Shown here one piece after another: positions 2,961 through 53,348 of a stretch of 64,000 bases of DNA. Position numbers and translations under genes: made by a program. Source of the DNA: an uncultured Actinomycetes bacterium (lineage in GTDB: Bacteria > Actinomycetota > Actinomycetes > Streptosporangiales > Streptosporangiaceae); assembly GCA_963835775.1 (NCBI GenBank), contig CAWIHB010000012.1, positions 13,702-77,701 on the forward strand, written 5' to 3'. Numbering within the stretch: position 1 is the stretch's first letter; the number at the start of each line of letters is the position of its first letter. The notes beneath the pieces are model-generated. The model made no database searches. It saw only the letters and a list, made by a program, of their open reading frames with translations, and was not told the DNA's origin.

Positions 2961-3431
2961 TCACGCTCTGTATTCCGCCGAGCTCGGCAGGAAGTAGCCC
3001 GGATGCACGGAATCCGGGTCGACGCCACCGGTCATCCACTGGCCGGTCAGCCAGCCCCCGATGGCTATCGTCACGGCCAGGAACACGATCACCAGCACGC
3101 GCCCGGCGGCCGGGGCGTCTTGGGCCAGCGCGGCGGCCAACAGCATCGCGGTGAGGGCGGAAGACGAAACGAACGGCGACAGAACAGGGTCGCGGAGGTC
3201 GGCCAGGACGATCCGGGGCCCCTGGGCCAGGTACGCGCCGGCCAGCACCAGCCATAGGGCGGCGGCCAGGACGTCAAGCGCGCCGGGAACCGCCTGCACA
3301 GTCCCGAGCACCGGCACGGCCGCATGCCACGCCTGCGCGAGCCCGGCGATGCCCAAGGCGATGCCGAACAGATTCGGCGGAACCCGGGGGCCCAGGAACC
3401 AAGGAGGGAATCGGGGATGATCGAGGCACGG
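2961..3431 (-). pseudogene. TehA/SLAC1 (TDT) family transporter remnant, about the first 150 aa only
   Basis: [22 protein letters not shown]... then 3-4 TM helices ending at stop 2961. The in-frame upstream stretch has no usable start before a TAG, and overlaps the ABC fragment start. Confidence 0.55.
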
Positions 3432-3540
3432 GGCCTAACGAAACGTTACGGGGACAAGGTAGCCGTCGACGACCTGTCGTTCACGGTCCGGCCCGGCCGG
3501 GTGACCGGCTTCCTAGGGCCGAACGGCGCGGGCAAGCCCG
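3417..3540 (+). pseudogene. ABC transporter ATP-binding protein, 5' fragment ending right after Walker A (copy A)
   Basis: RBS aaggaggg + ATG 3417; [40 protein letters not shown] followed by unrelated [10 protein letters not shown]. Confidence 0.8.
3522..3538. repeat. 17-bp direct repeat aacggcgcgggcaagcc (Walker-A codons), copy 1
   Basis: Identical 17-mer recurs at 3840-3856, 318 bp downstream. Confidence 0.9.
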
Positions 3541-3572
3541 TTACCGAATTGAGACAATCATTTTGGCTTCAG
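3539..3572. repeat. junction motif cgttaccgRattgagacWWtcattt..tcag, copy 1
   Basis: Directly follows ggcaagcc. The same motif follows ggcaagcc again at 10462-10494. Confidence 0.85.
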
Positions 3573-3589
3573 GCTGGTTGTCCGGGTCC

Positions 3590-3814
3590 GGGCTGGCTGA
3601 GCAGGCGCTACTGAGCGGGTCTCGGCCGCTGATCAGCGTGACCAGTCGCGCTCAAATAGGTGACAACCTCGCCGCACTCGACTTCGGCCTCCCCGCCGAG
3701 ATCGAGGACCGCCTGGAGGAAGCAAGCCGACCGGCGCTGACCTACCCGTACTACTTTTCCGGCGCGACGATGGGCACTGTCATCAACGCGGGGACGACCA
3801 TATCCTCGCGCTGA
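3590..3814 (+). pseudogene. aldo/keto reductase, C-terminal remnant
   Basis: ISVTSRAQIGDNLAALDFGLPAEIEDRLEEASRPALTYPYYF resembles the AKR C-terminus; no N-terminal barrel present. Confidence 0.5.
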
Positions 3815-3839
3815 CCACCTGGCTGCCGGTAGAAAACCC

Positions 3840-3856
3840 AACGGCGCGGGCAAGCC
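3840..3856. repeat. 17-bp direct repeat aacggcgcgggcaagcc, copy 2
   Basis: Identical to 3522-3538. The downstream sequence is not ABC-like. Confidence 0.9.
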
Positions 3857-3998
3857 GAACTCCGGATATCGACACTTCTTTGATATGGTGCCCGGTTTCC
3901 CTGGGAACCGCAGGTTCCCGTCCGGGGTGCTCGGGGTCTGGCAGCGGTGAGGCCGGGTCATCTGACTGAGCGGGGGATGCGGATGAGCGCCAGCGAGG

Positions 3999-5834
3999 TC
4001 ACGACTCGCGGAGTTCGGGCTGGTACCTGCGTAGCCATTGGTTGAATTGCAGGACGGAGGCGATGGCGTGGGTGGCTAGTGGTGTGCTGGCTGCGGCGAG
4101 GCTGGCGAGGCGCTTCGGGTCGGTTATGGTGCTGAGGGGTGCGTTGCTGTCGGCGGCTACTGCCTTCAGTTCGCGTCGCAGTGCCTGGTCGTAGGCTGGG
4201 TCCTGGGTACGGGGGTAGGGGCTCTTGCGGCGGTTGGCCACGGCCGGGGGGAGCAGGTCGCGGGTGGCGGCCCGGAGCAGGCTTTTCTCCCGCCCGTCGC
4301 TGGTTTTCATCTGCCATGGGGTGGTGTAGAGGTAGTCGACGAGGCGGTGGTCGCAGTAGGGGACGCGGACTTCCAGGCCGTGGGCCATGCTGAGCCGGTC
4401 TTTGCGGTCGAGCAGCCGCGGCAGGAAGTAGGTCAGGTGGAGGTAGGTGATCTCGCGCATGCGGTGTTCGCTGCGGTCGCCGGCGTCGCTGTCGGGGTGC
4501 GGTACTGCGGCGAGGGACTCGCGGTAGATGCCGCGGACGTGGCCGCGGAGGTCGAGCCGGTCGGCGAGCGTTTGGGGGAGGAGCCGGGCGGGTGAGTGCT
4601 GGGGTGACCGGGAGGCGAGCCAGGGAAATGTCGGCGCGCCGACTGCGCCGGGGTCGTGGAAGGTGAGGTAGCCGCCGAAGACCTCGTCGGCGCCCTCGCC
4701 AGATATCGCGACGGTGCAGTGGCGGCGGATCGCGCCGAAGAGCAGGTAGAGGGAGGTGTAGGCGTCGCTGCCGCCGACGGGGGCGTCCATGGCGTCCAGG
4801 ACGGCGGCACGGGCGGCGGGGTCGGCGAGCTGGCTGCTGGACAGCACGATGTCGGTGTGCGCGGTGCCGGCGTGCTCGGCCAGGGCGTGGACGTACGGGG
4901 CGTCGGGGGCGGGCCGGAGGCGGTCGGGGACGAACCTGTCGCTGTGCCCGGTGAAGTCGACGGCGAACGACCGTACCGGCCCGGTCTGCTGGCCGGCGGC
5001 GATCGCGGTGAGCGCGCTGGAGTCCAGGCCTCCCGACAGCAGGGTGCAGACCGGCACATCGGCGGCCATCTGGTCGGCCATGATGTCCTCGAGCAGGCTG
5101 CGGATGGCGCGCGTGGTGGCGGGCAGGCCATCGCGGTGCTCGCGGGCCTGCAGCCGCCAGTAGGCGCGCACGGACCTGCCGGATGCTGACCATTCGATGA
5201 GGTGCCCGGGCGGTACCTCGTAGATGTCGCGGTAGATCGTCTCGCCCGGGCGCTTGATGCCGGTCAGCAGCCGGCGCAGCCCGTCGAGGTCAATGACGGG
5301 CGTGACGTCCGGGTGGGCGAGCAGGGCCTTGGGCTCGGAGCCGAACAGGACTCCGCTGCCGGTGGGGTGGTAGTACAGCGGCTTGACGCCCAGCCTGTCC
5401 CGGACGAGAAGCAGGCGCTGCAGGCGGACGTCCCACAGCGCGAAGGCGAACATGCCGGTCAGCCGGGCGGCCAGGCCGGTGCCCCATTCCTGGTAGCAGC
5501 GCAGCACGACCTCGGTGTCGCTTGCCGTCCGGAACCGGTGCCCCCGGCCGCGCAGTTCCTCACGCAGCCGCCGGTAGTTGTAGACCTCGCCGCAGTAGCT
5601 CAGCACCACGGCCGGCTCATCCTCGTGCCCGTCCCGGCAGGCGATCATCGGCTGGCGGCCCCCGTCTGGGTCGATCACGGCCAGCCGCCGGTGGCTGAGG
5701 ACGGCATGGCCGTCGGCCCATAGCCCGCCGGCATCGGGGCCGCGCGCGGCGATGGCGTCCGTCATGGCCTGCACCCGGGCCGCCAGCGGTGCATGATCGC
5801 CGGAGAAATCCGCCCAGCCGGCGATGCCGCACAT
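3999..5834 (-). CDS. asnB: asparagine synthase (glutamine-hydrolysing)
   Basis: ATG checked at 5834; MCGIAGW (Cys2 glutaminase nucleophile), LLSGGLDSSALTA PP-loop, 611 aa. Confidence 0.9.
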   Translation of the reverse strand: MCGIAGWADFSGDHAPLAARVQAMTDAIAARGPDAGGLWADGHAVLSHRRLAVIDPDGGRQPMIACRDGHEDEPAVVLSYCGEVYNYRRLREELRGRGHRFRTASDTEVVLRCYQEWGTGLAARLTGMFAFALWDVRLQRLLLVRDRLGVKPLYYHPTGSGVLFGSEPKALLAHPDVTPVIDLDGLRRLLTGIKRPGETIYRDIYEVPPGHLIEWSASGRSVRAYWRLQAREHRDGLPATTRAIRSLLEDIMADQMAADVPVCTLLSGGLDSSALTAIAAGQQTGPVRSFAVDFTGHSDRFVPDRLRPAPDAPYVHALAEHAGTAHTDIVLSSSQLADPAARAAVLDAMDAPVGGSDAYTSLYLLFGAIRRHCTVAISGEGADEVFGGYLTFHDPGAVGAPTFPWLASRSPQHSPARLLPQTLADRLDLRGHVRGIYRESLAAVPHPDSDAGDRSEHRMREITYLHLTYFLPRLLDRKDRLSMAHGLEVRVPYCDHRLVDYLYTTPWQMKTSDGREKSLLRAATRDLLPPAVANRRKSPYPRTQDPAYDQALRRELKAVAADSNAPLSTITDPKRLASLAAASTPLATHAIASVLQFNQWLRRYQPELRES

Positions 5835-6086
5835 CAGGCGGCGCCTCCCCGCCTGTCGGCGCTCGCGCCCCCCGCAGGCGCCAGCGGCCCGGCAGGCCGC
5901 CGTGCCGCCTGCCGGGGCGGGAGCGGGCCGAGGGCCTGCGGTGCGGCGAAGACGGCACCGGCAAGACGCTTCAACGAACTCCATGTCATACGTTACATCT
6001 TACTATCTATCATTCGTTGCCTGGCCGGGTAATGCTTAATATTGTGCTAACTGACGAGTTAGGTTCGCACTACAGGGAGATAGTTC

Positions 6087-6102
6087 CTACGTGCTATCGT
6101 AG
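6087..6102. promoter_or_regulatory. inverted repeat ctacg-N6-cgtag in an AT-rich divergent asnB/marR intergenic region (candidate MarR operator)
   Basis: ctacgtgctatcgtag lies 5 bp upstream of the marR-family start. The 5985-6107 region is visibly AT-richer than its surroundings. Confidence 0.3.
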
Positions 6103-6107
6103 TAAAT

Positions 6108-6674
6108 GTGATATCGGATGAGGAACTGCCGGGGATGGCGACGGTGCTGCGCAGGGGCACCACGCGGCTGGCCCGGCGGCTGCGGATGGAACGGCCGGAG
6201 ACGGGAGTGCCGCTGCTGGAGATCAGCGTGCTTGGTCACCTGAGCCGGCGCGGGCCGATGACGCCAGGCGAGATAGCCGCCGCGGAGCGCGTTCAGCCGC
6301 AGACGCTGACGCGCACGCTGGCCGCCCTGGAGGCCGGGGGGCACCTCAGCCGCCACGCCGATGCCGCGGACCGGCGCCGGTCGCTGCTGTCGATCACCGG
6401 CACCGGGCGCGAGGTGCTGGCCCGCGACATGTGGCAGCGTGACAGCTGGCTGTCGCTCGCCATGGCCGCCCAGCTGACCGCCGTCGAATGCCGGCTGCTG
6501 GCACTGGCCGGGGAATTGATGGACCGCCTCGCCGACGCCGAGGTCACGGCGCTGCACGCGGCGCAGCCAGGCCAGCACAGCGATATCTCCGGCTCCGCCG
6601 CCCGCTGCGGCGATGACAGCAGCCGCGCCGGCAGCGGTGACCGCCGCGCAGCCCCGGGACCAGGTCCCGGATGA
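6108..6674 (+). CDS. MarR family transcriptional regulator
   Basis: LLEISVLGHLSRRGPMTPGEIAAAERVQPQTLTRTLAALEAGGHLSRHADAADRRRSLLSIT wHTH; GTG 6108 (alternative ATG 6135); ATGA overlap with the next gene. Confidence 0.85.
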   Translation: MISDEELPGMATVLRRGTTRLARRLRMERPETGVPLLEISVLGHLSRRGPMTPGEIAAAERVQPQTLTRTLAALEAGGHLSRHADAADRRRSLLSITGTGREVLARDMWQRDSWLSLAMAAQLTAVECRLLALAGELMDRLADAEVTALHAAQPGQHSDISGSAARCGDDSSRAGSGDRRAAPGPGPG

Positions 6675-8374
6675 TAGGCAGCGCGCGCCCCGGCCGCCGC
6701 TGGATGGCGGGGCGCGATCCGGGGCTGACGCGGCTGCGGGCAGCGGCGGTCACCATGGCCGCGGCACTGGCCAGCTTCGGCAGCGCGCTGCTGGTCGGCC
6801 ATCTTGCCCGGCTGCCGGCGGGCATCGCGATCCTTGCCGTGGCCATCGGGCTGTCCGTCGGGCGGATCCGGCAGCGGCCAGGAGCCAAGCCGCCGGGCTT
6901 GCCCGGCCTCCTGGTACTGCCCCTCGTCGCGGCAGGCGCGAGCGAGATCAGCACCCAGATGCTCGAGCACCCGGACCTCGGCGACGCGCTGTTCGTCCTC
7001 GCGGTCACCGCCTCGATCTGGGTGCGCCGGTTCGGGCCGCTCGCCACCCGCGCCGGGGCGCTGGCCAGCGTGCCGCTGGCCGCCATCTTGATCATCCCGG
7101 CCCCGGCCATCACCGCCCCCGGCTCATCGGGGAACGCTCCCTGGTGGGCCGCGCTGATCGCGGTCATCGCCCTGGCCTGGTCCGCCGCCGTCCAGCTCAT
7201 CGCGGGCCGCATCCGCCTGCTGCCCCGGCCGTCAGCCCCGCCCCCGCCCCCGCCCGTCAGCAGGGCCGCGTCACCGGGACCACGGTCCCGCCGCCGGATG
7301 CCGGCGAGCACCCGGATGGCACTGCAGATGGCCGCCGCGATCGCCGCCGCCTTCGCCGTTGGCCGCAGCCTCTATCCGGCGCACTGGATGTGGGTGGTCC
7401 TGACCGCGTTCATCGTCTGCAGCGGCAGCCGCAGCCGCGGCGACGTCGCCCACAAGGCGGTCATGCGGGTGCTCGGCGCCGCGGCCGGCACTATCGCCGC
7501 GACCGCGCTCACCGGCGCCTTCCCGCCCGCGGACACCTGGTCGGTCGTGGCGATCTTCGCCGTCCTCACCACGGGGCTGTGGCTGCGGCCGGTCAACTAC
7601 GCCTACTGGGCGGCCGGGATGACCGCCGCGATGGCCCTGCTCTACGGCTACTACGGCCAGCGCGGCATGCACCTGCTCGGCGACCGGGTCGAAGCCATCG
7701 CCATCGGCGCGGCACTCGGGATCGCTGCGTCCTGGATCATCTTCCCTACCCGGACCACCAACCTCGTCCGCCGCGACCTCGCACTCGCCCTGGCCGCGCT
7801 GAGCGACTACCTCGCGGCGACCGGTATCGACACCGCGGCCCTGCCCCGCCTCCAGGCCCGCTTCGAGCAGGCCGTCGCGGCACTCCAGCAGGCCACCAGC
7901 CCGCTCCAGCTGCTCCCCCCGCCCTGGCGCGCCGGTCATGACTACCTACCCGCCGTTACCGCGCTGCGGCAGTGCGCCGCCACCCTGCCCGCGATCACCC
8001 GGCAGGCCGCAACCGCTCCGGCGAGCGAGGACCAGCCCGGCACCGCGACAGCGGCAGCCGGCATCACCGCCAGCATTACCGCGATCCGCCGCCGCCTCGC
8101 CGGCCGCCATCCGCTGCACGCGGCAACATGGCCGCAGCTCGCCGCCAACGTCACAGCCCTCACCGCCGCAACCCGCATCGGCACGCAGTCCGGAAAAGAC
8201 CAGGCTGAAAAAGACGCCTCAAGCACCGCCCAGCAAGAGCCAGCATCGCTTTCAGACAGCAGCCCCGCCGACTCCGGTCATGACCAGTCTCGCCGCCTGC
8301 CAGCCCAGCGCAGCGAATCGGATGACAACCGCGAGCCGGATCCGTGCCAGAGCCTGGGACCTCCGAGCGGTTAG
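6671..8374 (+). CDS. FUSC family (fusaric acid resistance / aromatic acid exporter-like) membrane protein
   Basis: 567 aa with two hydrophobic multi-TM blocks separated and followed by soluble helical regions; coupled to marR, a typical pairing. Confidence 0.75.
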   Translation: MIGSARPGRRWMAGRDPGLTRLRAAAVTMAAALASFGSALLVGHLARLPAGIAILAVAIGLSVGRIRQRPGAKPPGLPGLLVLPLVAAGASEISTQMLEHPDLGDALFVLAVTASIWVRRFGPLATRAGALASVPLAAILIIPAPAITAPGSSGNAPWWAALIAVIALAWSAAVQLIAGRIRLLPRPSAPPPPPPVSRAASPGPRSRRRMPASTRMALQMAAAIAAAFAVGRSLYPAHWMWVVLTAFIVCSGSRSRGDVAHKAVMRVLGAAAGTIAATALTGAFPPADTWSVVAIFAVLTTGLWLRPVNYAYWAAGMTAAMALLYGYYGQRGMHLLGDRVEAIAIGAALGIAASWIIFPTRTTNLVRRDLALALAALSDYLAATGIDTAALPRLQARFEQAVAALQQATSPLQLLPPPWRAGHDYLPAVTALRQCAATLPAITRQAATAPASEDQPGTATAAAGITASITAIRRRLAGRHPLHAATWPQLAANVTALTAATRIGTQSGKDQAEKDASSTAQQEPASLSDSSPADSGHDQSRRLPAQRSESDDNREPDPCQSLGPPSG

Positions 8375-8413
8375 CCGACGCCAAGGCATCTACCAGGCCA
8401 AACCGAATCATAT

Positions 8414-9075
8414 GCCCAGGGCGTCGGCAAGACCACCACGTTCAACGCGTGCAGCGGCCTCGTACGGCCGGCCTCCGGCAAGGTTCTCCTCGGCGGAAGG
8501 AACATCTCGCGGTTCACCCCCGCCAGGCGTGCCCAGGCCGGGATGGGCAGGACCTTCCAGCGCGTCGAACTGTGCGAGAGCCTGCCGGTCTACGACAACA
8601 TCGCGGTCGGCTGCGAGGCGGGCCTGGCCGGCAGCAGCCCGCTCAAGCACGTCCTGTCCCGCCCGGCAACACGGCGCACAATCGATGACCGGGTCTGGGA
8701 CGCCGTCAAGCTCTGCGGCCTGGACTCCGTGGTCAACACCCCGGTGCACGCCCTATCCACAGGGCAGCGGCGGCTCCTGGAACTGGCCAGGTGCCTGGTC
8801 AGCCCGTTCCAGATCCTGCTGCCCGACGAGCCGTCGTCCGGACTCGACCGCAACGAGACGGACCGCTTCGGCGAACTCCTGCAGCGGGTCGTGGCCGAAC
8901 GCGGGCTGGGCATAGTGCTGGTCGAGCACGACATGGACCTCGTCATGCGCGTGTGCTCGACGCTATATGTCCTGAACTACGGGGAACTCATATTCAGCGG
9001 CTCACCCAGCGAGGCCCGCCACTCACCCGTCGTGCAAGCGGCCTACCTGGGCCAGCCCGAACCAGTACAGGGAAG
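8414..9075 (+). pseudogene. LivG-type branched-chain amino acid ABC ATPase, lacking the N-terminus up to Walker A
   Basis: Begins AQGVGKTTTFNACSGLVRPASGKVLLGGRNI...LSTGQRRLLELARCL...LLPDEPSSGLD...AAYLG; follows the FUSC stop in the same frame. No start and no proper stop. Confidence 0.7.
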
Positions 9076-9080
9076 ACGGC

Positions 9081-9368
9081 ATGACAGCCACCGCCGATCC
9101 ACAGCCAGCTCCCCCTCTGGAGCTCCGGGGCATCCACGCCGGCTACGGCAAGGTGCCGGTCCTGCGGGACATCAGCGTGATCGTGCCATGCGGGTCCATC
9201 GTCACCTTGCTGGGAGCCAACGGCGCCGGCAAGACTACGATGCTCCGGGTGCTTCTCGGCCTGGTGCGGCCCACCAGCGGTCAGGCCACGATCTGGGCCA
9301 AGCCGTACCGGGAGCTGGGGAATCAGCGGCGCCGGGCTGCCGTCATATACGGACATGACGTAGCGTGA
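9081..9368 (+). pseudogene. chimeric ABC ATPase fragment: LivF-type N-terminus joined at Walker A to a BcrA/DrrA-type segment, truncated
   Basis: LELRGIHAGYGKVPVLRDISVIVPCGSIVTLLGANGAGKTT (LivF-like), then MLRVLLGLVRPTSGQATIWAKPYRELGN, parallel to TTTMRMILGLDRPAAGSVTVNGKPYAEL at 14194; stop after 95 aa. Confidence 0.55.
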
Positions 9369-9495
9369 CAGGGAAATCGGGCGCCCAGCGCTCAGGACCA
9401 CGCAGATCCCTGCCGATTACGGACGGGAGGCCGTCGCCGGCAGACCATCGCATACCGGGCGGCAGAACGCCTGGTTATGGCTGGCCGGGTCGGGG

Positions 9496-9759
9496 TCAGT
9501 GGTCGTCATAGTGGAAGCGGCAGGCGATGATGGTGATCACGTCGGACTGGATGTCGTACACGAGCCGGTCCTTCTCGGTTATCCGGCGTGACCAGGCCTC
9601 GCCGCCTAGGTGCTTGAGACGTTCCGGCTTGCCAGTGCCGGTTCGCGGCGTGCGTGTCGTCTCAGCGATCAGCCTGATGATCTTGGAGAGCACTTTGGGG
9701 TTGGTCATCGACCAAGCCTCGAGGTCCTCAAGGGCACCGGAGGTGACCGACAGTTTCAC
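9496..9759 (-). CDS. yoeB: type II toxin, Txe/YoeB family
   Basis: 87 aa, ...KPERLKHLGGEAWSRRITEKDRLVYDIQSDVITIIACRFHYDDH; GTGA overlap with the upstream antitoxin. Confidence 0.9.
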   Translation of the reverse strand: MKLSVTSGALEDLEAWSMTNPKVLSKIIRLIAETTRTPRTGTGKPERLKHLGGEAWSRRITEKDRLVYDIQSDVITIIACRFHYDDH

Positions 9760-10040
9760 TCGCCTGCCTGCACGTTGAACCGGGCGGCCAGCGTCTCGAG
9801 TTCGGTCGGCTGGGCGGATCCTTCGCGTGCCTCGGCCAGCCCGCGCAGGATGTGGACGGCATTGGCGCGCGTGGAGAACAGGTAGAGCGTTTCCTGCAGC
9901 GACTCGTAGTCTTCGGCGGACATCAGGACGGCGTTGCCGCCGTTGCGTGCCACGATCTCGATGACAACGTGGTCGTCGTTGACCTGCCGTACCAGCGGGA
10001 ACAGATTCTCGCGGGCGTTGCTGATGCTTACCGCGGTCAT
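9756..10040 (-). CDS. yefM: type II antitoxin, Phd/YefM family
   Basis: MTAVSISNARENLFPLVRQVNDDHVVIEIVARNGGNAVLMSAEDYESLQETLYL. Confidence 0.9.
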   Translation of the reverse strand: MTAVSISNARENLFPLVRQVNDDHVVIEIVARNGGNAVLMSAEDYESLQETLYLFSTRANAVHILRGLAEAREGSAQPTELETLAARFNVQAGE

Positions 10041-10054
10041 CTCGGCCTCATCTC

Positions 10055-10079
10055 ACTCGTACAGGAACCTTGTACGAGT
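10055..10079. promoter_or_regulatory. near-perfect palindrome actcgtacagg-aa-ccttgtacgagt (candidate YefM/YoeB operator)
   Basis: Lies 15 bp upstream of the yefM start and contains GTAC-centred half sites like the TGTACA operators of yefM-yoeB loci. Confidence 0.5.
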
Positions 10080-10329
10080 TTACGTGATCGGAGGCAAGAA
10101 TGGCAAGGAGGCGATCCGCTGCATGCGTAGCCAGCACAGCCAGGCCAGCTCCAAGCAGGCACCATGCTGCCTTAACGCGGACCGATCACCGCTTGCAACC
10201 GCCGGGCAGATCGCCCGGATCTGCATCACCACGACGGCTCTGCCGCGGGCGTACCTGCCACTCAATCAGGCGGATCTCGTGCTGCCTATGGTCCTCTTGC
10301 CGCGCTGCGTGATGACACTCCGGCAGTGC

Positions 10330-10461
10330 TTGATGTGGCCAGGTTCCCTGGCGACGGCAAGAAAAGAACGGCGTTGCTGTCAGCTCAGGGGCTGCCGGGT
10401 GGCACGGTTGCCGGTTTCCGCTGGTCAGGCGGCACAGGACGCGCAACGGTGCCGGCAAGCC
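10330..10461 (+). pseudogene. ABC ATPase 5' remnant ending at Walker A (copy B)
   Basis: RTALLSAQGLPGGTVAGF...NGAGK with a 17-nt insertion before the P-loop; homologous to 14118-14193. Confidence 0.55.
10377..10458. repeat. direct repeat, copy 1 (paralogous ABC 5' segment)
   Basis: ctgtcagctcaggggctgccgggtggcacggttgccggtttccgctggtcaggcggcacaggacgcgcaacggtgccggcaa aligns with 14118-14193 (roughly 75% identity by eye). Confidence 0.75.
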
Positions 10462-10494
10462 CGTTACCGGATTGAGACTTTCATTTGCGCTCAG
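10462..10494. repeat. junction motif cgttaccgRattgagacWWtcattt..tcag, copy 2
   Basis: cgttaccggattgagactttcatttgcgctcag directly after ggcaagcc; compare 3539-3572. Confidence 0.85.
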
Positions 10495-10520
10495 CGGCGG
10501 TCAAGTCGGCGGTGGGTCGA

Positions 10521-11102
10521 TCAAGCCAAACGCTCTCTCAGGCCGTTCACGTAGGTGGCGAGCAGCCGGCGGCATGTCGCGTCCCATTCCGGGTCGGATT
10601 GCCGGGGCTGAGCGAGCATCGCTCCGAAGACCACGACATCGCGCGGAGTCACGTCCAGGCTAATCGTGCCGTCCGTACGGCCACGTTCGATGATCCGTTG
10701 CACGGCGCGGTGGACCTGGTCGCGCACCGCTAGGGTTTCCGGGACTGTAACCGAAGGCCCGCCATGCAGCGGCAGGACGAGGTCGTTCCGCTGAGCGATC
10801 GCGGCTTCGATGAAGCGCCGCAGCGCATCGCTGGCTGTCGTCCCGTCGCTTTCAGCCGCCTGCACGTTCGAGAGCACCTGCTCGAAGGAACGGTGGGCAA
10901 GGAAGTTGAGCAGATCCTCGCGGGTCGGGAAGTGACGGTAGAGCGTTCCGATGCCGACACCCGCGTCTGCCGCGATGGTTGCCATAGGCACGTGCGTGCC
11001 CTCACGGTGCACGGCTGCGGTCGCGGCGCGAACGAGGGCCTCGTGGTTGCGGGCCGCGTCGCTGCGCTGTTCGCGCGGACGGGGCTTCCTCGCGATTGCC
11101 AT
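10521..11102 (-). CDS. TetR/AcrR family transcriptional regulator
   Basis: ATG checked at 11102; MATIAADAGVGIGTLYRHFPTREDLL HTH. Confidence 0.9.
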   Translation of the reverse strand: MAIARKPRPREQRSDAARNHEALVRAATAAVHREGTHVPMATIAADAGVGIGTLYRHFPTREDLLNFLAHRSFEQVLSNVQAAESDGTTASDALRRFIEAAIAQRNDLVLPLHGGPSVTVPETLAVRDQVHRAVQRIIERGRTDGTISLDVTPRDVVVFGAMLAQPRQSDPEWDATCRRLLATYVNGLRERLA

Positions 11103-11264
11103 GCGCTCATTGAAGCCGTCTCCGATTCCCGTTGAGAACGGCTACACTAAAACGGACGAAATCCTCCGGATTGAAGGAGTGAGGGTGTTGGCGCGCTCAC
11201 TGGAGGACTTCTCCGCCAGACTCGCCCAGCAGGTCCGCACCCCGTCCATCCGCGAGGAGACAGC

Positions 11265-11804
11265 ATGTCCAGCCAGCCCGCGCCCGTCCCGCCCGACGAC
11301 CTGTCACGCGAACTCACTGTCGCGCGGCCGGACCACGACCAGAGCCTCCCGCACATCGGGCTCGTCGGCGACACCTACACGATCCTGGTCACAGGCGAGG
11401 ACACCGCCGGGAAGTACACGCTCATCGACATGCACGTGCCCCCGGGCGGCGGTCCGCCGCCGCACCGGCACGACTTCGAGGAGATGTTCACCGTGCTCGA
11501 CGGCGAAGTCCAGGTGACCTTCCGCGGCGAGACGCTCGTTGCCCGCGCCGGCGAGACCATCAACGTGCCGGCCAACGCCCCGCACGCGTTCACCAACACC
11601 GGGGATAAGCCGTCGCGGTTGCTGTGCATGTGCGCGCCATCAGGGCAGGAGGAGTTCTTCACGCTGGTCGGCCAGCCCGTCGCCACCCGGACTGAGGCGC
11701 CATCGCCGCTCGACGCCGACGCGCAGGCGGCCTTCATCGCCAAGTCGCAGGCGCTCGCGCCCGAGTACAAGACTGAACTGCTTCCGCCGCCCGGCGCGAA
11801 ATAA
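11265..11804 (+). CDS. cupin domain protein
   Basis: PPHRHDFEEMFTVLDGEVQVTF...INVPANAPHAFTN; divergent from the TetR gene. Confidence 0.85.
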   Translation: MSSQPAPVPPDDLSRELTVARPDHDQSLPHIGLVGDTYTILVTGEDTAGKYTLIDMHVPPGGGPPPHRHDFEEMFTVLDGEVQVTFRGETLVARAGETINVPANAPHAFTNTGDKPSRLLCMCAPSGQEEFFTLVGQPVATRTEAPSPLDADAQAAFIAKSQALAPEYKTELLPPPGAK

Positions 11805-11917
11805 AGGACGAGTGCCAAGATGACTTCACGCCGAACCGCGTACCAGCAGAAGACCAGCCAGACGATCCCGGTCATCGCGCTCATCCGTCGCGACGCCTCG
11901 GCATCTGACGCGGGCAC

Positions 11918-12331
11918 ATGAGCCGCAGGGTGCAGTTCGACCACTACGGGTCGCCGGACGTCCTCCGTGTCGTCGATGTCCCGCGTCCCTCGGTCAGCGA
12001 TGGGCAGGTTCTGGTTCAGGTCGCCGCTGCGGGCATCAATCCTGGCGAGATCGCCATCCGGAACGGTGCGATGGAACAGATGTTCCCCACGACCTTTCCG
12101 TCCGGCCAGGGTAGCGACTTCGCCGGCCGGGTCGTCGAGGTTGGGCCAGGCGTCACCGAGTTCGCGCCTGGCGACGAGGTCATGGGCTGGTCCGACAGGC
12201 GGTCAGCACAGGCCGACCAGGTCGTATCCGATCGGCAGCACCTGATAGCCAGGCCCCGCGCGCTGGACTGGATCCGCGCTGGGTCGTTGTGGGCGATCGG
12301 GGTGACCTCCTTCTCCGCGGTTCGCGGCTGA
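11918..12331 (+). pseudogene. zinc-type/quinone oxidoreductase (MDR family), N-terminal 137 aa only
   Basis: VLVQVAAAGINPGEIAIRNG...GSDFAGRVVEVGPGVTEFAPGDEVMGW; stops before the Rossmann domain. Confidence 0.65.
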
Positions 12332-12622
12332 CGGACCGGTCCATCACTTGTACGCGCAGCGAGGCGGCCATCAGTGCTTATCCACGCGAACGGTCGCCTG
12401 AGTGACGCTGCCGCGAATGAGGTCAGCATGTGGCGCTCCACCGCCGGATTAGCAGAACCGCCGTCGGATTCCCCTACACGAGGACGGAGATGCGGGCCGG
12501 CAATTGCTCGGCGTCTACCGCGGCCACTTGCTTTCATCGGTCGCTGCCGGTGTGCCGCCCAGCTGCAGATCCGCCATTTCCGGGCCTTGAGGGCTGCTCT
12601 GCGGGCATGAGAGGCGGAATTG

Positions 12623-13573
12623 TCATGGTCGGTGGCCGCTTATTGCCTGCTCCAGCGCGGTCAGGCTGGCGAGCAGGTCCTCGTGGGCGTTGGCCTGGAC
12701 CCAGTGCCTGATCAGGAGGGGCAGGGGCCGGGGAAGCTTGACGGGCATCGTCGTGTACACGCCACGTGTCTCCAGGAGCTTGTCCCGCAGCTGCTCGGGT
12801 GAGGTGCCTGGCCGGGGGATGCAGATGAGCCGGCCGAACGGGCTGGTCCGGTCGGACGTCTCATCCCTGAGGTCGGCCAGCGGGAGGAAGGTGATGTGAT
12901 GAAGGCCGGGATGGTCGTGCGCCCACGGGCGAGCGCTCGCCCGGCTGGCGATGACCCGTGCCGTCTCGTCGGTGCTTATGTTGGGAGCGATGTTCTCGAT
13001 GACGACCTGTGTCCGGTCGTCGCTGATGCTGACGTGGGCCTGGAGGCGCAGTTCGGCCGGGCGGCCCGCGGCCAGTGCCGTGAGATCGCCGCTGACCGTG
13101 CAGCCGGTCAGGAAGTTAGGCTGGCCGACGATGCCGGCCAGTTCCTTGCCTGTCACGTCCGGCCGCCTGATGACCTCGCGGACCGCCTCGATGATCGCGT
13201 CTGGGCGGAACGGCGGGCGGAGTCCGTCGCGGTAGGTGTTCCCGTTGATCAAGCCGATGGGCACGGGGGCGATCTGGCCGCGTTCGGCGGCGAGGGCAAC
13301 TCTCCCGGCGGGCGAGATCCAGGCCTCGGTGTACCGGAAATTCGCGGGCGGGTCGTCGCCGCGGCTGCCGAAGTTACCCCGGCCGTGCACCAGGCTGACG
13401 GGCATGGTCCACGGCCTGGCCAGGTCGACAAGCACCTCATATGCATACCCGGGTGCCAGGCCGATGCGTTCTTCCACGCCGGCCAGCGCCTTATCGCACC
13501 TGAGAAACCGGCTGGTCTCGACTGCTTCCAGGAGCGCTATCTCGACGACGCCAAGCCCGGTGCGCTCGCTCAC
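12623..13573 (-). CDS. stand-alone GyrA/ParC N-terminal (winged-helix + tower)-like protein, 316 aa
   Basis: [25 protein letters not shown] vs GyrA [32 protein letters not shown] vs [28 protein letters not shown] vs [31 protein letters not shown] vs ISALRDESDKD. GTG start overlaps the upstream stop (GTGA). Confidence 0.7.
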   Translation of the reverse strand: [316 protein letters not shown]

Positions 13574-13980
13574 TGTCCTGCTCTCTTGTACCGGCGCCTG
13601 AGATTCCAGGCGTCGGAGCTGGCGGCTACCAGGACCGGGACATCAGCGACTGGCACCAGGCCGGCCCCGCGGCGCAGCCGCGCCCAGTCCTGGCGGCCCC
13701 GCTCCAGCAGGCAGTCGACCTTGCCGTAGGCAGTCATCACAGGCACCACCGAACCGCCGGAAAACCAGTCCGCAGACGGCACCGGCCCGGTAGCGATCCC
13801 GGCAAGGGCGTCGCGCAGACGGTGCATGCTGTCCTCGCCTGCCTCGATGACCACATCGGCGTCCGCGACGCCGATGACCTCACCCCGCAGCCACAGCGCC
13901 GCGCTGCCGACCAGCAACGTTGACGCTCCTTCCGCAGCAAGGACTGCCGCAGCGAGAACTCCGGACGGGAATACCGGCAA
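13570..13980 (-). CDS. minimal nucleotidyltransferase (MNT)-like protein, 136 aa
   Basis: LLVGSAALWLRGEVIGVADADVVIE fits the GS...DxD pol-beta NTase motif. TTG start at 13980 is the only start after an in-frame TGA; translationally coupled to the GyrA-like ORF. Confidence 0.5.
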   Translation of the reverse strand: MPVFPSGVLAAAVLAAEGASTLLVGSAALWLRGEVIGVADADVVIEAGEDSMHRLRDALAGIATGPVPSADWFSGGSVVPVMTAYGKVDCLLERGRQDWARLRRGAGLVPVADVPVLVAASSDAWNLRRRYKRAGQ

Positions 13981-14094
13981 TGACGACGCTCACAACAAGC
14001 CGAGGGACAAGAAGAACCAAGTGTTGCAGGAGATGACCTCCCCCGCGCGGGCCCAGGCCCCGCAGGAGCCGATAACGATCTCGGCAGCACGTGG

Positions 14095-14460
14095 CGCCTC
14101 GTCAGCGATCGTACCCGCCTGTCGCCTACCGGGTTGGGCGCGGTTGCCGATTCCCCTGATCAGACGGCATAGGACACGCAGCGGTGCCGGCAAAACCACG
14201 ACCATGCGGATGATCCTCGGGCTCGACCGCCCGGCCGCCGGATCGGTGACGGTCAACGGCAAACCGTACGCCGAACTGTACAGCGCGATACGCGAGGTCG
14301 GCGCGCTGCTGGATGCCAAAGCCGTGCACGGCGGCCGCAGCGCATACAAACACCTGCTGTGCCTGGCGCAGACCAACAGCATCCCGCGCAGCCGGGTCGA
14401 CGAGGTCATCGGCATCGTCGGGCTGGAGGACGTGGCAGGGAAACGGTCCAAGGGCAGCCA
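14095..14460 (+). pseudogene. BcrA/DrrA-type ABC ATPase remnant (copy C): decayed 5' part plus intact-looking Walker A to pre-signature segment
   Basis: GAGKTTTMRMILGLDRPAAGSVTVNGKPYAELYSAIREVGALLDAKAVHGGRSAYKHLLCLAQTNSIPRSRVDEVIGIVGLEDVAGKRSKG. The upstream part has an in-frame stop and the same 17-nt insertion as copy B. Confidence 0.7.
14118..14193. repeat. direct repeat, copy 2 (paralogous ABC 5' segment)
   Basis: cctgtcgcctaccgggttgggcgcggttgccgattcccctgatcagacggcataggacacgcagcggtgccggcaa; see 10377-10458. Confidence 0.75.
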
Positions 14461-14569
14461 CATCATGGCCAAGCTCGGCCTGCGCGACCGGATCCAGGCC
14501 GTCGTCTACGCCTACGAGACCGGCCTAATCACCCCTCAGGGCGGCACCACCGGGCCAACGCCGGGGTGA
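14461..14569 (+). pseudogene. LuxR/NarL-type response regulator, extreme C-terminal remnant fused in frame to the ABC fragment
   Basis: HIMAKLGLRDRIQAVVYAYETGLITP is the last helix of a LuxR HTH. Confidence 0.55.
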
Positions 14570-26609: not shown

Positions 26610-27164
26610 TCAACAGGCCCCGGTCGTCAGGGCGGTGATCACGATGTTGTGTACGTGGGGATGCGAAAGGCCATGCGGGCCGCGGTGGTGCTCAAAGGAG
26701 GCGACCACCCAGCGCTGGGGCTTGACCGGCGAGAACCTGCTGAGGCCCGCGTCCTGAAGGAACTTGAGCGCCGCATAGTTAGCTGACCAGGCCACCGACC
26801 AGATCGCCTGGACCTGCTGCCACAGTTGCTCTCCCGTCTTCGGCTTCCCGTCCTGCGCAGCCTGGATCGCGGCCTGAAGTAGCTGGCCGTGTTCGGCGAC
26901 CAGTTCTCTACGTGGTTCCCAGATAAGGTCGGCGATCTGGCCGTGGGCGGACAGCCGCCGCAGCGTCGCGTTGTCCACGTCGCCGCCCAGCGCCAGCCCG
27001 TGATCTTGGCAGGCCAGGCCGGTCCACGCGCCGGAGGGCTCGTCGGTCTCGCAGTGGTCCAGGACGTGCGCCAGGTGATCCTCGACCCAGGTCAGCCGCA
27101 TGACGCCGCGCAGTCCCGCGCCTTCGATGCGGCCGCCTGCCATCGCTCCCCTCTCCAGTTTCAA
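26610..27164 (-). pseudogene. MobF/TrwC-type conjugative relaxase, N-terminal about 180 aa only
   Basis: ...WTGLACQDHGLALGGDVDNATLRRL...ASFEHHRGPHGLSHPHVHNIVI (HxDxxxPxxHxH-type relaxase histidine motif). Confidence 0.5.
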
Positions 27165-27379
27165 GCGTGCACCCTGGACGCCACTAATTGACGGCCTCCA
27201 TGTCCAGGTCTTGATCCATGGCTCCCACCACGATGCGGGCTGGGTATTCGGAGAGTTCTAATACCCGGCTCCACCATTCCGGCACGCGGCAGCCTGGACC
27301 GGCACGCCACCTGCATCGTCGCCAGAGCCGCCCGGTAGGCAAGTCCTCACCACTCTGCGGGCGAGTCTGGGGAACAGGC

Positions 27380-42083: not shown

Positions 42084-43029
42084 ATGCGACTTGGGGTCCT
42101 GGACGTGGGGTCCAACACGATCCACCTGCTGGTGGTTGATGCCTATCAGGGCGCCCGGCCCATGCCCGCCTTCTCCCACAAGGCCGAGCTGAGGCTCGCG
42201 GCCCAGCTGGACAACGGCAGCGCGCTGTCCGGCCGGGGGGAGCGCAGCCTGCGCGAGGTGGTAGAGGAGGCGCTGCGCATCGCCGAGGACAAGGGGGTCG
42301 AGGACCTCATCGCGTTCGCCACCTCGGCCGTCCGCGAAGCCAAGAACGGCGAGCAGGTGCTGGCCAGGATCCTGGAGCAGACCGGAGCGCAGATCACCGT
42401 GATGACCGGCCACGAGGAGGCGCGGCTCACGTTCCTGGCCGCCCGCCGGTGGTTCGGCTGGTCCTCGGGCCGCCTGCTGGTCATCGACATCGGCGGCGGG
42501 TCGCTCGAGGTGGCCTCGGGCATCGATGAACTGGCCGACGCCGTGGCCTCCCTGCCGCTCGGCGGCCTGGCTGACCAGGGACTGGCTGAGCGGCGACCCG
42601 CCGTCCGCGGCCGAGGTGCGGCGGCTGCGCAAGCATGTGCGGGCGGAGATCGCCCGGGTGACCGGCGGCATGCTGCGCCAGGGCCCGCCAGATCACGTGG
42701 TGGGCACGTCCAAGACGTTCCGGCAGCTGGCCAGGATCGCCGGCGCGGCCCCGTCCGGCGAGGGCCCGTACGTCAAGCGGGTGCTGCGGCACGCCGACGT
42801 GGCCGCCCTGGCCGAGCGCCTGCCCGCCATGTCCCAGGCCGAACGGGTCAAGCTGCCCGGTGTCTCGGCCAGCCGGGTGGCGCAGCTTCCGGCCGGCGCC
42901 ATCGTGGCCGACGCCATCCTGGACCTGCTGGCCGTTGATCAGATCGAGCTGTGCCCGTGGGCGTTGCGCGAAGGCGTCATCCTGCGGCGCCTGGACATGC
43001 TGGCCCAGGGCCTGGGCGACGCCGAATAA
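42084..43029 (+). pseudogene. Ppx/GppA family phosphatase with an apparent 1-nt deletion near 42561-42566
   Basis: [20 protein letters not shown]...[13 protein letters not shown]...SLPLG in ORF 42084..42938; the conserved continuation [26 protein letters not shown]...CPWALREGVIL is in ORF 42526..43029. Confidence 0.75.
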
Positions 43030-44543: not shown

Positions 44544-44756
44544 GTGTCGGCACGTAACCTGGGCCCCAAGCGAACGGAGTCGCGATCGACGCCGGAGGTG
44601 AGCACGATTCCCAGGCAGTTGGACCTTCGTGTTCACGACCGCGTTGCCCTGGATGAGATAGAGCTCTACGCCGAGGTGCTGAGCGCGGTGGCGGCCACCG
44701 ACCGGCCGCTGACTCCCGCGGAACTCGACGAAGCCCTGGGCATCAGCAGCAGCTAG
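44544..44756 (+). CDS. small conserved hypothetical protein, 70 aa
   Basis: ggagga RBS + GTG 44544; MSARNLGPKRTESRS...RVALDEIELYAEVLSAVAATDRPLTPAELDEALG. Confidence 0.55.
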   Translation: MSARNLGPKRTESRSTPEVSTIPRQLDLRVHDRVALDEIELYAEVLSAVAATDRPLTPAELDEALGISSS

Positions 44757-44802
44757 CCCCGCCGCAGCTAGCCCCGCCGCAGCTAGCCCCGCCGCAGCTA
44801 GC
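44751..44802. repeat. 15-bp tandem repeat agctagccccgccgc x3.5
   Basis: Units at 44751, 44766 and 44781, plus a partial unit at 44796. The palindromic gctagc supplies the TAG of the + ORF (44754) and the TAG of mshD on the - strand (44798-44800). Confidence 0.9.
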
Positions 44803-45748
44803 ACTGCCGGTACATCGCGTCGGTCCGGTAGCGGGTGAAACCTAGGCTCTCGTACATCCTGATCGCGGGCACGTTGTCTTCGTCGACGTACAGCACGGCC
44901 TGGGCCAGGCCGCGGTCGCGCAGGTAGCCCAGCCCGGCCAGGGTCAGCGCCCGGCCGAGACCGGTGCCGCGCTGGCCCGGGTCCACCCCGACCACGTAGA
45001 CCTCGCCGAGGCCGGCGGGCGCGCCCGCCGGCCCGCTGACCTTGGTCCAGTGGAAGCCGGTCATGACCCCGTCCCGCTCGGCGATGAAGAAGCCCGCCGG
45101 GTCGAACCACGGCTCCCGCTCGCGCAGTTCGAGGTCATGCCGCGTCCAGGCGCCCTGTTCCGGGTGCTTGGCGAAGGCCCGGGCGTTCAGGCCGAGCCAT
45201 TCTTCCTCGTCCTGACCCGGGCGGAACGTGCGCAGCGTACTGCCCGCCGGGAAAGCGGGCGGGTCCAGCGGGCCCGTCAGCGGCCGGCGCATCTGCCACA
45301 GGGCGCGGAAGCGCTCGAAGCCGGCCGCCCGGGCCAGCCGCCCGGCCGCGGGCAGGTCGCCGTGCGCCCACAGCTGGACCTGGTGGCCGTCCGCCTCGGC
45401 GGTCAGCGCGTCCACCAGGGCCAGGCCGAGGCCGTGGCCACGGTGCCGCGGGTGAATGACCAGCTCGCCGCTCAGGTCGCGCGCCGGGGTGTTCGCGTCC
45501 ACGTGGGCGTAGCCGGCCAGCTCGCCCTGCGCCGTGGTCAGGACCAGGTCACGGTCGGTGCCCTGGCCGGCGCTCGGGCTGGCGCTGCCTCCGGCGGCAG
45601 CCGTCCCGGCGTCGTAGCGCAGGTGCAGCAGCGCGTGCTCGGACAGCGGCGCCACCCCGTCGGCGGCTTCGGCCGCATCGGCCAGGGCCAGGGCCTCGGC
45701 CACCTGGGCCGAAGTGAGCCTGCCGCCGGTGATCGACCACTGGCTCAT
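44798..45748 (-). CDS. mshD: mycothiol synthase (two-GNAT-domain acetyltransferase)
   Basis: 316 aa; IHPRHRGHGLGLALVDAL and VDPGQRGTGLGRALTLAGLGYL GNAT motifs; synteny with glnR and the pst locus as in other actinomycetes. Confidence 0.8.
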   Translation of the reverse strand: MSQWSITGGRLTSAQVAEALALADAAEAADGVAPLSEHALLHLRYDAGTAAAGGSASPSAGQGTDRDLVLTTAQGELAGYAHVDANTPARDLSGELVIHPRHRGHGLGLALVDALTAEADGHQVQLWAHGDLPAAGRLARAAGFERFRALWQMRRPLTGPLDPPAFPAGSTLRTFRPGQDEEEWLGLNARAFAKHPEQGAWTRHDLELREREPWFDPAGFFIAERDGVMTGFHWTKVSGPAGAPAGLGEVYVVGVDPGQRGTGLGRALTLAGLGYLRDRGLAQAVLYVDEDNVPAIRMYESLGFTRYRTDAMYRQC

Positions 45749-45772
45749 GGGCGGTCGGTCACCCCCGGCGGG

Positions 45773-46555: not shown

Positions 46556-46663
46556 CCGGCAGCACCTCCACTAGCTGGTGCGGTCGCACCTTCGGAACTT
46601 GTATAAACGAACAAGGACCCGGGGGCAACACCGCCCGGGTCCGCTAAGAAGAGGATAACTCAT

Positions 46664-49134: not shown

Positions 49135-49200
49135 TCCCCGGAGTTCGTCGCGCCGCGCAGCGCAGACGGCTCGACCCCGGGGGAGGACAGCCAGCTCAGT

Positions 49201-49312
49201 GCTAACCAGATTGGGCTAACCAGATTGGGCTAACCAGATTGGGCCAACCAGATGGGGCCAACCAGATGGGGCCAACCAGATGGGGCCAACCAGATGGGGC
49301 CAACCAGATGGG
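49201..49312. repeat. 14-bp tandem array x8 (3x gctaaccagattgg + 5x gccaaccagatggg)
   Basis: Perfect head-to-tail units every 14 bp from 49201; ends 10 bp before the DUF4395 start. Confidence 0.95.
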
Positions 49313-49322
49313 GCGGAGGAAC

Positions 49323-49751: not shown

Positions 49752-49780
49752 CGGCAGCCGGAAAAGGAGGAAATTCCACC

Positions 49781-53315: not shown

Positions 53316-53348
53316 GCAGACAACCAGAGGGAGCCTGCCGGCGACGGG

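Follow-up and report, generated by a model that had tools for sequence, protein, structure and literature searches.

The stretch analysed here, the window, comprises 64,000 nucleotides (69.5% G+C) of contig CAWIHB010000012.1, from an uncultured bacterium of the Streptosporangiaceae (Actinomycetota). It carries a gene for an ABC-2-type (ATP-binding cassette) ATPase that is broken at its Walker-A codons, together with copies of a short junction unit that probably marks the ends of a family of mobile cassettes. The ATPase frame (P0178) opens at an ATG at 3417, reaches the Walker-A motif GPNGAGK and departs from ABC sequence past GGCAAG(CC) at 3538, and both Pfam and the alignments agree with a preliminary description of this DNA in which the ABC start was cut after ggcaagcc. 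At the DNA level, the intact homologues L009 and L010 align to 3391-3539 and then directly to 14182-14455, with an overlap of 16 bp at Walker A, and a search with the two halves joined found a protein (P0001) that is 92% identical across both. Because these homologues bridge the halves, the alignments show what must have been one ABC-2-type ATPase gene (3391-3538 and 14182-14455), split by 10.6 kb of three stacked segments (Table 1). A five-way alignment limits the exchange point to GGCAAG or just after it; the intact homologues read GK-TTT after Walker A.

Table 1. The split ABC gene, the parts of the junction unit (LEFT, core, RIGHT) and the segments in between, in window coordinates. L numbers are other contigs.
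Feature	Position	Strand	Evidence and remarks
ABC-2-type ATPase, 5' fragment	3391..3538	+	Start codon 3417; ends in Walker-A codons GPNGAGK; Pfam ABC_tran; 89% identity to L009 3745-3894 (intact gene), 88% to L013 9976-10147 and to L010
Core copy 1 (AACGGCGCGGGCAAGCC)	3522..3538	+	Both ABC Walker-A codons and junction-unit core
LEFT end copy 1 (CGTTACCGAATTGAGACAATCATT)	3539..3562	+	nhmmer model positions 54-94, E = 1.5e-11; conservation ends at TCATT
Segment A, 277 bp of unrelated DNA	3563..3839	.	Open reading frame 3563-3814; no Pfam match; no match in any fetched locus
Core copy 2	3840..3856	+	Identical to copy 1
Segment B (cargo)	3887..10280	.	Pfam: AsnB 3999-5984 (-), MarR 6108-6674 (+), FUSC 6671-8374 (+), Liv-type ABC pieces 8375-9368 (+), YoeB 9496-9759 (-), YefM 9756-10040 (-)
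RIGHT end	10281..10444	+	Family-wide conserved part 10392-10444, subfamily extension from 10281; nhmmer E = 2.8e-26; alignment of 20 copies; region 82% identical to L001 6381-6585
Core copy 3 (AACGGTGCCGGCAAGCC)	10445..10461	+	Within complete RIGHT-core-LEFT unit
LEFT end copy 2	10462..10485	+	Motif match and nhmmer
Segment C (cargo)	10486..14125	.	Pfam: TetR 10521-11102 (-), cupin 11265-11804 (+), ADH_N-only fragment 11918-12331 (+), open reading frame 12623-13573 (-)
RIGHT end copy 2	14126..14179	+	Pairwise alignment with 10392-10459; nhmmer positions 10-71, E = 3.9e-8; repeat search
Core copy 4 (AGCGGTGCCGGCAAAAC)	14180..14196	+	Joined to ABC 3' part
ABC 3' continuation, same gene (GKTTTMRMILGLDRP...KRSKG)	14182..14455	+	Itself cut at 14455; 87% identity to L009 3879-4125, 88% to L013 15272-15585
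GerE/LuxR regulator, last codons, fused to ABC scrap	14457..14569	+	96% identical to L013 18425-18494

The complete unit, at 10392-10485, consists of a RIGHT end, a Walker-A-like core of 15-17 bp and a LEFT end of 24 bp; units measure 80-95 bp and stop abruptly at TCATT. RIGHT is conserved over about 55 bp across the family and over up to about 160 bp in subfamilies. The motif that follows the core, CGTTACCGRATTGAGACWWTCATTT, occurs in the window only at 3539 and 10462, where none is expected by chance and none appeared in shuffles. Perfect copies of the 17-mer AACGGCGCGGGCAAGCC stand at 3522-3538 and 3840-3856 (0.02 expected by chance), and copies with two mismatches at 9219 and 10445. In a repeat search, the 43 bp ahead of the third core copy (10416-10458) recurred at 14151-14193 (86%), followed by the ABC 3' sequence. 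The window hence holds three types of junction: ABC5'-core-LEFT (3522-3562), RIGHT-core-LEFT (10392-10485), and RIGHT-core-ABC3' (14126-14196). Both recurrences were already in the preliminary description and both are real, but the core-bearing junction copies number four, and the complementary right end, joined to the ABC 3' half at 14126-14196, had been missed. Its view of the second locus as the remnant of a different ABC gene has to be given up: the sequence has stops in the Walker-A frame and no ABC likeness, and RIGHT (53-160 bp) is conserved in at least 20 non-ABC copies on other contigs. We read this locus, from its sequence, as the joined RIGHT and LEFT ends, either an attP-like site or a tandem junction. 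A derivation of RIGHT from a decayed ABC 5' region was ruled out by the in-frame stops and the missing ABC pattern.

The core matches, over its 15-17 bp, the Walker-A codons AAC-GGN-GCN-GGC-AAG of ABC ATPase genes, and a direct repeat of this length flanks every segment. The right-hand cores at the split gene, in the window and in the orthologous contig L013, carry an element-type GGT, found in many units, at a codon that reads GGC or GGG in the intact homologues. The core therefore probably belongs to the element and is probably no plain target duplication; of the two natures proposed earlier for the 17-mer, that of an att-like core is favoured over that of a simple target duplication. The pair at 3522 and 3840 represents two copies of the commonest core variant, which L001 and L002 also have, and is separated by a one-ended piece of 301 bp made of LEFT and unrelated DNA. 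The 30 bp after the second core copy (3857-3886) resemble LEFT weakly and not significantly (66% in the repeat search; nhmmer E = 0.08, mostly from the core). The terminal 25-94 bp have no reverse-strand copy in the window or the other loci, so that there are no terminal inverted repeats, and LEFT and RIGHT are mutually unrelated.

The same gene is interrupted in a second genome. L013 is a 389 kb contig from an independent assembly, whose relatives are named Trebonia sp., and its copy of the ABC gene (88% identical) is split at the same codon, with different contents. The first segment, of 1.38 kb, has as its sole gene an Rpn/YhgA-like one (rpn below; PF04754, 'Transposase_31'), with its 3' end towards LEFT. 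It is followed by a full unit, by cargo with adh_short, TetR, and MarR genes, by RIGHT-core-ABC3' and by the intact remainder of the operon: ABC-2 permease, HisKA_3 kinase, and GerE regulator. Window positions 14457-14526 match the end of that regulator gene, which in L013 lies 2.9 kb downstream, with the rest of the ABC gene, the permease, and the kinase in between, whereas in the window it is fused to the ABC scrap at 14455-14457. The window has hence lost about 2.9 kb, by a later deletion that took away the rest of its operon.

Many other ABC genes are cut in this way. When the unit was translated in the Walker-A frame and used as a profile, 130 short open reading frames (ORFs) came back, and we classified the best 120. 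Ninety of these 120 are ABC ATPase N-termini cut right after GPNGAGK and continued by PVT[E/G]LR[H/R/Q/L]S, with annotations as diverse as ABC-2, NatA, branched-chain amino acid, phosphonate, and MlaF-like; another 12 are RIGHT-core-LEFT and 4 are RIGHT-core-ABC3' junctions. At 90% identity these N-termini fall into 75 clusters, and at 70% into 37, so that at least 37 different ABC genes have been hit. This bears out the earlier proposal of a conserved element end that targets P-loop DNA. All 90 ORFs end about 5-45 codons past the motif, in unrelated tails. The peptide past the motif reports the element interior, and a given tail can recur behind ABC N-termini of 2-6 clusters, which means that one cassette has entered more than one gene. 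The mobility of cassettes follows from these shared interiors and from the uneven likeness of the window to L015, a different array: the TetR-cupin region (10412-11812) is 94.5% identical to L015 6141-7542, against 87% for the YoeB/YefM pair. The latter region (9479-10098) is also 91% identical to L014 10218-10838, where it stands directly after an ABC5'-core-LEFT junction.

Among 185,579 species genomes, a pattern scan gave a single contig with the unit, from a metagenome-assembled genome of Actinobacteria (L001), and a metagenome scan found seven (L002-L008). The unit (...GGCACGGTTGCCGGTTTCCSCTGGTCAGGCGGCAYAGGAYGCGCAACGGYGCSGGCAAGCCCGTTACCGRATTGAGACNNTCATT) is present in all of them, every copy diverges past TCATT, and in these other contigs the motif always comes after GGCAA[G/C][C/T]C. 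The runs from the source soil gave 13-15 variant contigs each in three of four runs and 2 in X3, and their break points recur at 10445 (core start, joined to ABC 5'), 10459 (GGCAAG, joined to GK/TTTIRMIRGL), and 10485 (TCATT). As L001-L008 and the source-soil contigs carry the motif, it is not a segmental duplication confined to two places in the window. In L002 a second, different ABC gene is cut at the same codon, with LEFT behind it. There are 2-5 units on one strand in the window, L001, L002, L003, and L013-L017, all in one orientation as in integron cassettes. L014 and L017 have same-strand series of five units each (two of those in L017 are weak or partial), L015 has one of four and L016 one of two. 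The cassettes are multi-gene and of mixed orientation, their cargo comprising YoeB/YefM, PIN/MazE, PadR-PEMT/ICMT, TetR-cupin, MFS/ArsR, two-component systems, and gene fragments; the gene adjoining LEFT usually ends there, on the opposite strand. Solitary units were seen in ordinary intergenic DNA in L004 and L006. The plasmid collection gave no relevant match to the unit, near or distant. A scan of viral contigs gave two matches without core or RIGHT, which we took as chance. The peptide upstream of the L006 unit is faintly ABC-like.

We give a probability of about 0.6 to the reading that Trebonia-like soil actinobacteria harbour a family of mobile cassettes not described before, site-specific and insertion sequence (IS)-like, which targets Walker-A codons and of which the junction motif is one end. 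Taken as comparisons, the data show a bounded element family whose core is Walker-A-like, one gene that has reciprocal junctions in each of two genomes, stacking, and the use of one codon in many ABC genes. The window comes from a soil metagenome, where a chimeric assembly could arise at a shared k-mer, and GKPVTELR might be normal coding sequence in some ABC subfamily, as the preliminary description had also considered. Logan contigs run without difference through 3408-3624 (run X1), 3494-3689 (X2), 3597-5763 (X1), 10064-10629 (X1), and 10159-10631 (X2). The junctions at 3538/3539, 3856/3857, and 10461/10462 are thus spanned by contigs of two runs and are no assembly chimeras, and independent assemblies from JGI, ENA, and NCBI have the same architecture. 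Only the right junction, 14164-14267, is without such cover, a point in favour of an artefact. Coding sequence of an ABC subfamily would not stop so soon after the motif, with unrelated tails, in 90 of 90 ORFs, and the intact homologues have GK-TTT in its place. We consider both forms of this explanation refuted.

A dispersed intergenic repeat with a chance Walker-A 15-mer could also have been joined to ABC genes by short-homology or microhomology recombination, with no dedicated machinery. Such an origin would suit several findings: gene scraps and fusions abound in the window, no conserved words are more plentiful than Walker-A 15-mers, crossover positions scatter over a few nucleotides, cores differ between copies, and the solitary units of L004 and L006 lie in ordinary intergenic DNA. 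It leaves unexplained the sharp conserved LEFT end 24 bp past the homology in every copy, the two reciprocal junctions at one gene, kilobases apart, in two genomes, the single interior joined to up to 6 ABC genes, and the cutting of at least 37 ABC genes at the same codon. RecA-dependent exchange usually needs more than 15 bp with mismatches, which is all that the core offers. Recombination of this kind is an improbable source of the family.

The preferred reading calls for an enzyme. No tyrosine, serine, DDE, or DEDD recombinase gene was found in or beside any array, among the window ORFs scanned (1-56 kb) and about 100 kb of array loci. IntI and Phage_integrase had no match in the same window ORFs or in the gene calls of L013-L017, where about 20 kb is visible per array and a distant gene is possible; no segment matched rve or DDE_Tnp, and no segment had an integrase gene beside an attP-like site. 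The only DEDD_Tnp_IS110 gene that we saw, in L010, lies beside the intact ABC gene, without a unit. An origin of the unit as the right end of an IS200/IS605 element, with TnpB and omega-RNA, was ruled out, as there is no TnpB or Y1 gene upstream of any unit. As single-stranded DNA, the unit folds no better than shuffles on either strand (z = -0.98), and RNAalifold on the aligned units gave no supported helix on either strand, with a positive covariation term. Rfam had no match at the gathering threshold in the window, chance-level ones only at 10040-10560, and a tRNA scan of the window found none. The ideas of an attC-like site and of a small RNA were dropped for this want of significant structure or covariation. 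GTTACCG in the unit does not fit the attC box GTTRRRY. To our knowledge there is no ATAA-N6-TTAT-type dif core in the unit (no dif model was run); Xer-dependent modules (IMEX, pdif) carry dif-like sites of 28-30 bp, whose XerC and XerD arms enclose a 6 bp spacer. A promoter was considered as well, and no consistent -35/-10 pair was found by eye.

The leading candidate is the Rpn/YhgA-like nuclease, of the PD-(D/E)XK type to judge from its sequence, because rpn is the only gene found alone between LEFT and RIGHT; we put it forward tentatively. The gene lies between both ends in L013 and L019, and a 5'-truncated copy (63% identity) does so in L003; in L017, a homologue has RIGHT and an adjacent array. 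The preliminary description had asked after a recombinase, and these copies (PF04754, in L013, L019, and, truncated, in L003) are the candidate that emerged, in place of a tyrosine, serine, DDE, or DEDD gene. RIGHT is continuous with the conserved 5' leader of rpn in L013, L017, and L019, and a k-mer test for rpn ORFs that run into RIGHT returned this conserved leader only. The tail FPAGKRPPCAG, from the flank of rpn, follows LEFT in 5 ORFs of 3 ABC clusters. PF04754 matches are precomputed for the genes of L013, L017, L018, L019, and L020, and the L003 fragment has E = 1.9e-4. The L013 protein scores 42.8 bits with NCBIfam TIGR01784 (cut-off 52.1) and 63 bits with the RpnA equivalog model (cut-off 583), below both cut-offs, and is therefore a family member and not an RpnA orthologue. 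More than 500 rpn homologues exist, and in 115 full-length ones D83, E102, Q104, and R114 are at least 97% conserved. Their spacing, from which (and not from an alignment with RpnA) we take the correspondence, equals that of D63, E82, Q84, and R94, the catalytic PD-(D/E)XK residues of RpnA (PMC5350276). The Rpn proteins of Escherichia coli cleave DNA with little specificity and promote RecA-independent recombination (PMC5350276); they are also described as antiphage toxins (PMC10400941). No solved structure is related in sequence to the rpn homologue. One homologue, P0340, is a single locus seen in many samples, without units. The leader just 5' of the rpn start codon of L013 (11323-11360; GAATGTCGGTGGGGGCCGGTACGG) resembles LEFT on the same strand (AATGAATGTCTCAATCCGGTAACAGG), and the two may be a repeated protein-binding site.

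At insertion, the core of an element and the Walker-A codons of an ABC gene would undergo exchange inside GGCAAG or immediately past it. The product would be ABC5'-core-LEFT...RIGHT-core-ABC3', with the ABC gene destroyed. As each insertion would leave cores on both sides, further cassettes could enter, and same-strand arrays with internal RIGHT-core-LEFT junctions would build up. If rpn encodes the family's enzyme, which is possible and which we hold as a working idea, the 1.4 kb LEFT-rpn-RIGHT element would recognise and cut Walker-A DNA, be copied or inserted there through its own core, and mobilise enzyme-less cassettes in trans. The Rpn-like nuclease would make the break, and repair would copy the core-flanked element into it, in the manner of homing. 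We favour such a break with copying repair over a recombinase, as a tentative choice. The window's three segments, none of which encodes a recombinase, are therefore non-autonomous or fossil.

The elements of other families resemble these cassettes in parts. Like IS110/IS1111 (guided by a bridge RNA) and Tn7-type elements, they lack terminal inverted repeats and enter a defined, conserved or repeated host sequence, apparently in a specific orientation, and as in IS110/IS1111 the joined ends resemble the target. Unlike in those, neither DEDD nor TnsABCD genes lie within or beside the elements, the majority of copies hold cargo but no enzyme gene, and the joined ends match the target over 15-17 bp, against a core of 2 bp in IS110. 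Homing endonuclease genes, inteins, and group I introns in P-loop motifs are likewise selfish DNA that uses an invariant coding motif, with a nuclease as the suspected driver; here, by contrast, there is no splicing signature (none in Rfam), the ORFs terminate, the host gene is destroyed, and many paralogues are entered, not one allele. The L013 gene belongs to the Rpn/YhgA-like family of PF04754, that of E. coli RpnA-E, and keeps D...E-x-Q...R; no element ends or target site are known for the E. coli genes, whereas this gene occupies a bounded 1.4 kb unit whose target is defined.

Instead, as in integrons or in the staphylococcal cassette chromosome (SCC), the unit could be the site of a tyrosine or serine recombinase whose gene lies elsewhere, either heading an array or on a separate replicon; the Walker-A codons would be secondary sites and rpn a defence gene carried as cargo. 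Integron attC arrays, including clusters of attC sites lacking integron-integrases (CALINs), are same-strand arrays of unrelated, often toxin-antitoxin cassettes with a recombination site of 60-140 bp in between; neighbours share each site unequally, the larger part lying with one cassette and a short piece with the next, and secondary sites that mimic the core are also entered. SCC elements, moved by ccr serine recombinases at 15-18 bp repeats in rlmH, form tandem stacks of cargo, some without a recombinase of their own; their insertion site is a conserved gene, and the elements are set apart by direct repeats of about 17 bp that restore the target. The same-strand arrays seen here, with their unrelated cargo, toxin-antitoxin cassettes, and gene scraps, speak for a system of this kind, as do a core carried by the element, an exchange limited, as at att sites, to a few bases, and the lack of rpn in most sampled arrays. 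That Rpn proteins are known defence toxins points the same way (PMC10400941). Against it stand the lack of any Phage_integrase, Resolvase, Recombinase, or rve match in the scanned ORFs and gene calls of the window and array loci, a unit that has neither an attC-like fold (z = -0.98) nor covariation, the multi-gene cassettes of mixed orientation, and the occurrence of rpn as the sole gene, or as a truncated remnant, between two ends in L013, L019, and L003. The differences from integrons go further: no IntI was found, the unit has no R''/L''-L'/R' organisation, sequence is conserved and not structure, and entry is at a coding motif of many paralogous genes as opposed to one attI. We know of no report of integrons in Actinobacteria. 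SCC uses and preserves one site, at the 3' end of one gene, whereas here dozens of genes are hit in the middle and inactivated; no ccr-like gene was found. We judge a distant recombinase of this type unlikely. The cassettes work like integron or SCC arrays and like site-specific insertion sequences, yet they lack the hallmarks of each: they have neither IntI nor attC, neither inverted repeats nor a DDE enzyme, and no DEDD enzyme.

Several observations weigh against the proposed family, its target preference, or its enzyme. All the evidence is comparative, and the insertion event itself was not observed. The right junction of the window, where Logan cover is missing, is supported through the orthologous L013 locus. 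The profile search could find junctions in sense orientation only, so that the orientation specificity may be less than strict. Cores that flank one segment are mostly non-identical (those on either side of rpn in L013 and L019 differ at 4-5 positions), and the crossover moves by 2-3 nt (GK/TTT versus GKP/TT); such a shift would be allowed by homology-guided repair and equally by a recombinase with a heteroduplex overlap. The 64 kb window has no rpn, and neither have the 20 kb stretches around the L014, L015, and L016 arrays; the homologues in L018 (79%) and L020 (65%) have no recognisable ends nearby. RIGHT also precedes yefM and an ORF of 67 amino acids, and we know of no PD-(D/E)XK nuclease that performs conservative site-specific exchange. 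Given the antiphage role described for Rpn proteins (PMC10400941), rpn could be ordinary cargo, like the toxin-antitoxin pairs.

In the literature we found no element or target described for PF04754 proteins, and none aimed at Walker-A codons; as far as that literature shows, this choice of target has not been reported before. Walker-A codons of ABC ATPases offer dozens of copies per actinobacterial genome and are conserved across hosts. Many of the 'short ABC proteins' in soil metagenome annotations are explained as genes truncated by insertion, cassette arrays with shared, exchangeable cargo are shown in Actinobacteria, and the Rpn/YhgA 'Transposase_31' family gains a concrete candidate substrate and element. 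If rpn does encode the enzyme, 'Transposase_31' would have its first defined mobile element, complete with ends and target site, and no other transposable element is known to target the codons of a universal protein motif across dozens of paralogues. Should the nuclease itself have such specificity, it would be a natural reagent with a recognition sequence of about 15 bp.

The segments and their surroundings hold further features. The segment A ORF (3563-3814) may be a C-terminal scrap of an aldo/keto reductase, as the preliminary description had it, and the support is weak: its best match among solved structures is the aldo/keto reductase DepB (residues 291-332 of 343), at E = 0.23. A likeness of 3802-3830 to post-Walker-A ABC sequence was judged to be chance, since it falls within the C-terminal coding part of this ORF. 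In segment B, the YoeB/YefM pair is intact, with TGTACA repeats in its promoter region (9496-10098), and recurs as LEFT-proximal cargo in L014 and again in L015. At 9081-9368 the same segment has the 5' part of a LivF-like ABC gene with its own Walker A (9219-9235) and a stop 44 codons on. Its last residues (YGHDVA, then the stop) are the tail of P0187, a LivF-like ABC5'-LEFT ORF on another contig, and recombination at Walker A may have left this stretch behind as a scar. Units of one subfamily have a conserved ORF of 67 amino acids (MSAMREELHHLVDLLPEAELRP...; no Pfam match) and then a hairpin with a 7 bp stem directly ahead of RIGHT; the ORF lies at L002 2301-2504 (-) and has equivalents in L014 and L015. 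DUF222/HNH (REP13E12-like) genes occur near two arrays, and a reverse transcriptase of the group II intron type occurs inside the L015 array (L013 18660-20180, L014 5608-6819, and L015 18067-19443 for these genes).

Decay is visible beyond the junctions. Several homologues of the split ABC protein (P0001, P0002, P0003, P0020, and P0021 being those compared) are frameshifted or shortened, and decay of this gene family may be frequent in the lineage. The region as a whole is heavily rearranged or decayed, with fragments or fusions at 585-1469, 2961-3434, 11918-12331, 12623-13573, 26610-27257, 42406-43029, and 53316-53870. The types include an ORF that combines sigma70_r2 with adh_short, a SLAC1 gene reduced to its N-terminal half, ADH_N on its own, a GyrA-like stretch of 48 amino acids, a piece of TrwC relaxase, and two C-terminal parts, one of Ppx-GppA and one of a pyridine-nucleotide oxidoreductase. 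Two tandem repeats were also noted: a 15 bp unit (GCAGCTAGCCCCGCC) stands four times at 44746-44805, just 5' of an ORF with no Pfam match (44846-46606), and about eleven units of 14 bp, GCTAACCAGATTGG drifting to GCCAACCAGATGGG, occupy 49173-49326, at the start of a rhodanese-domain ORF (49220-50623).

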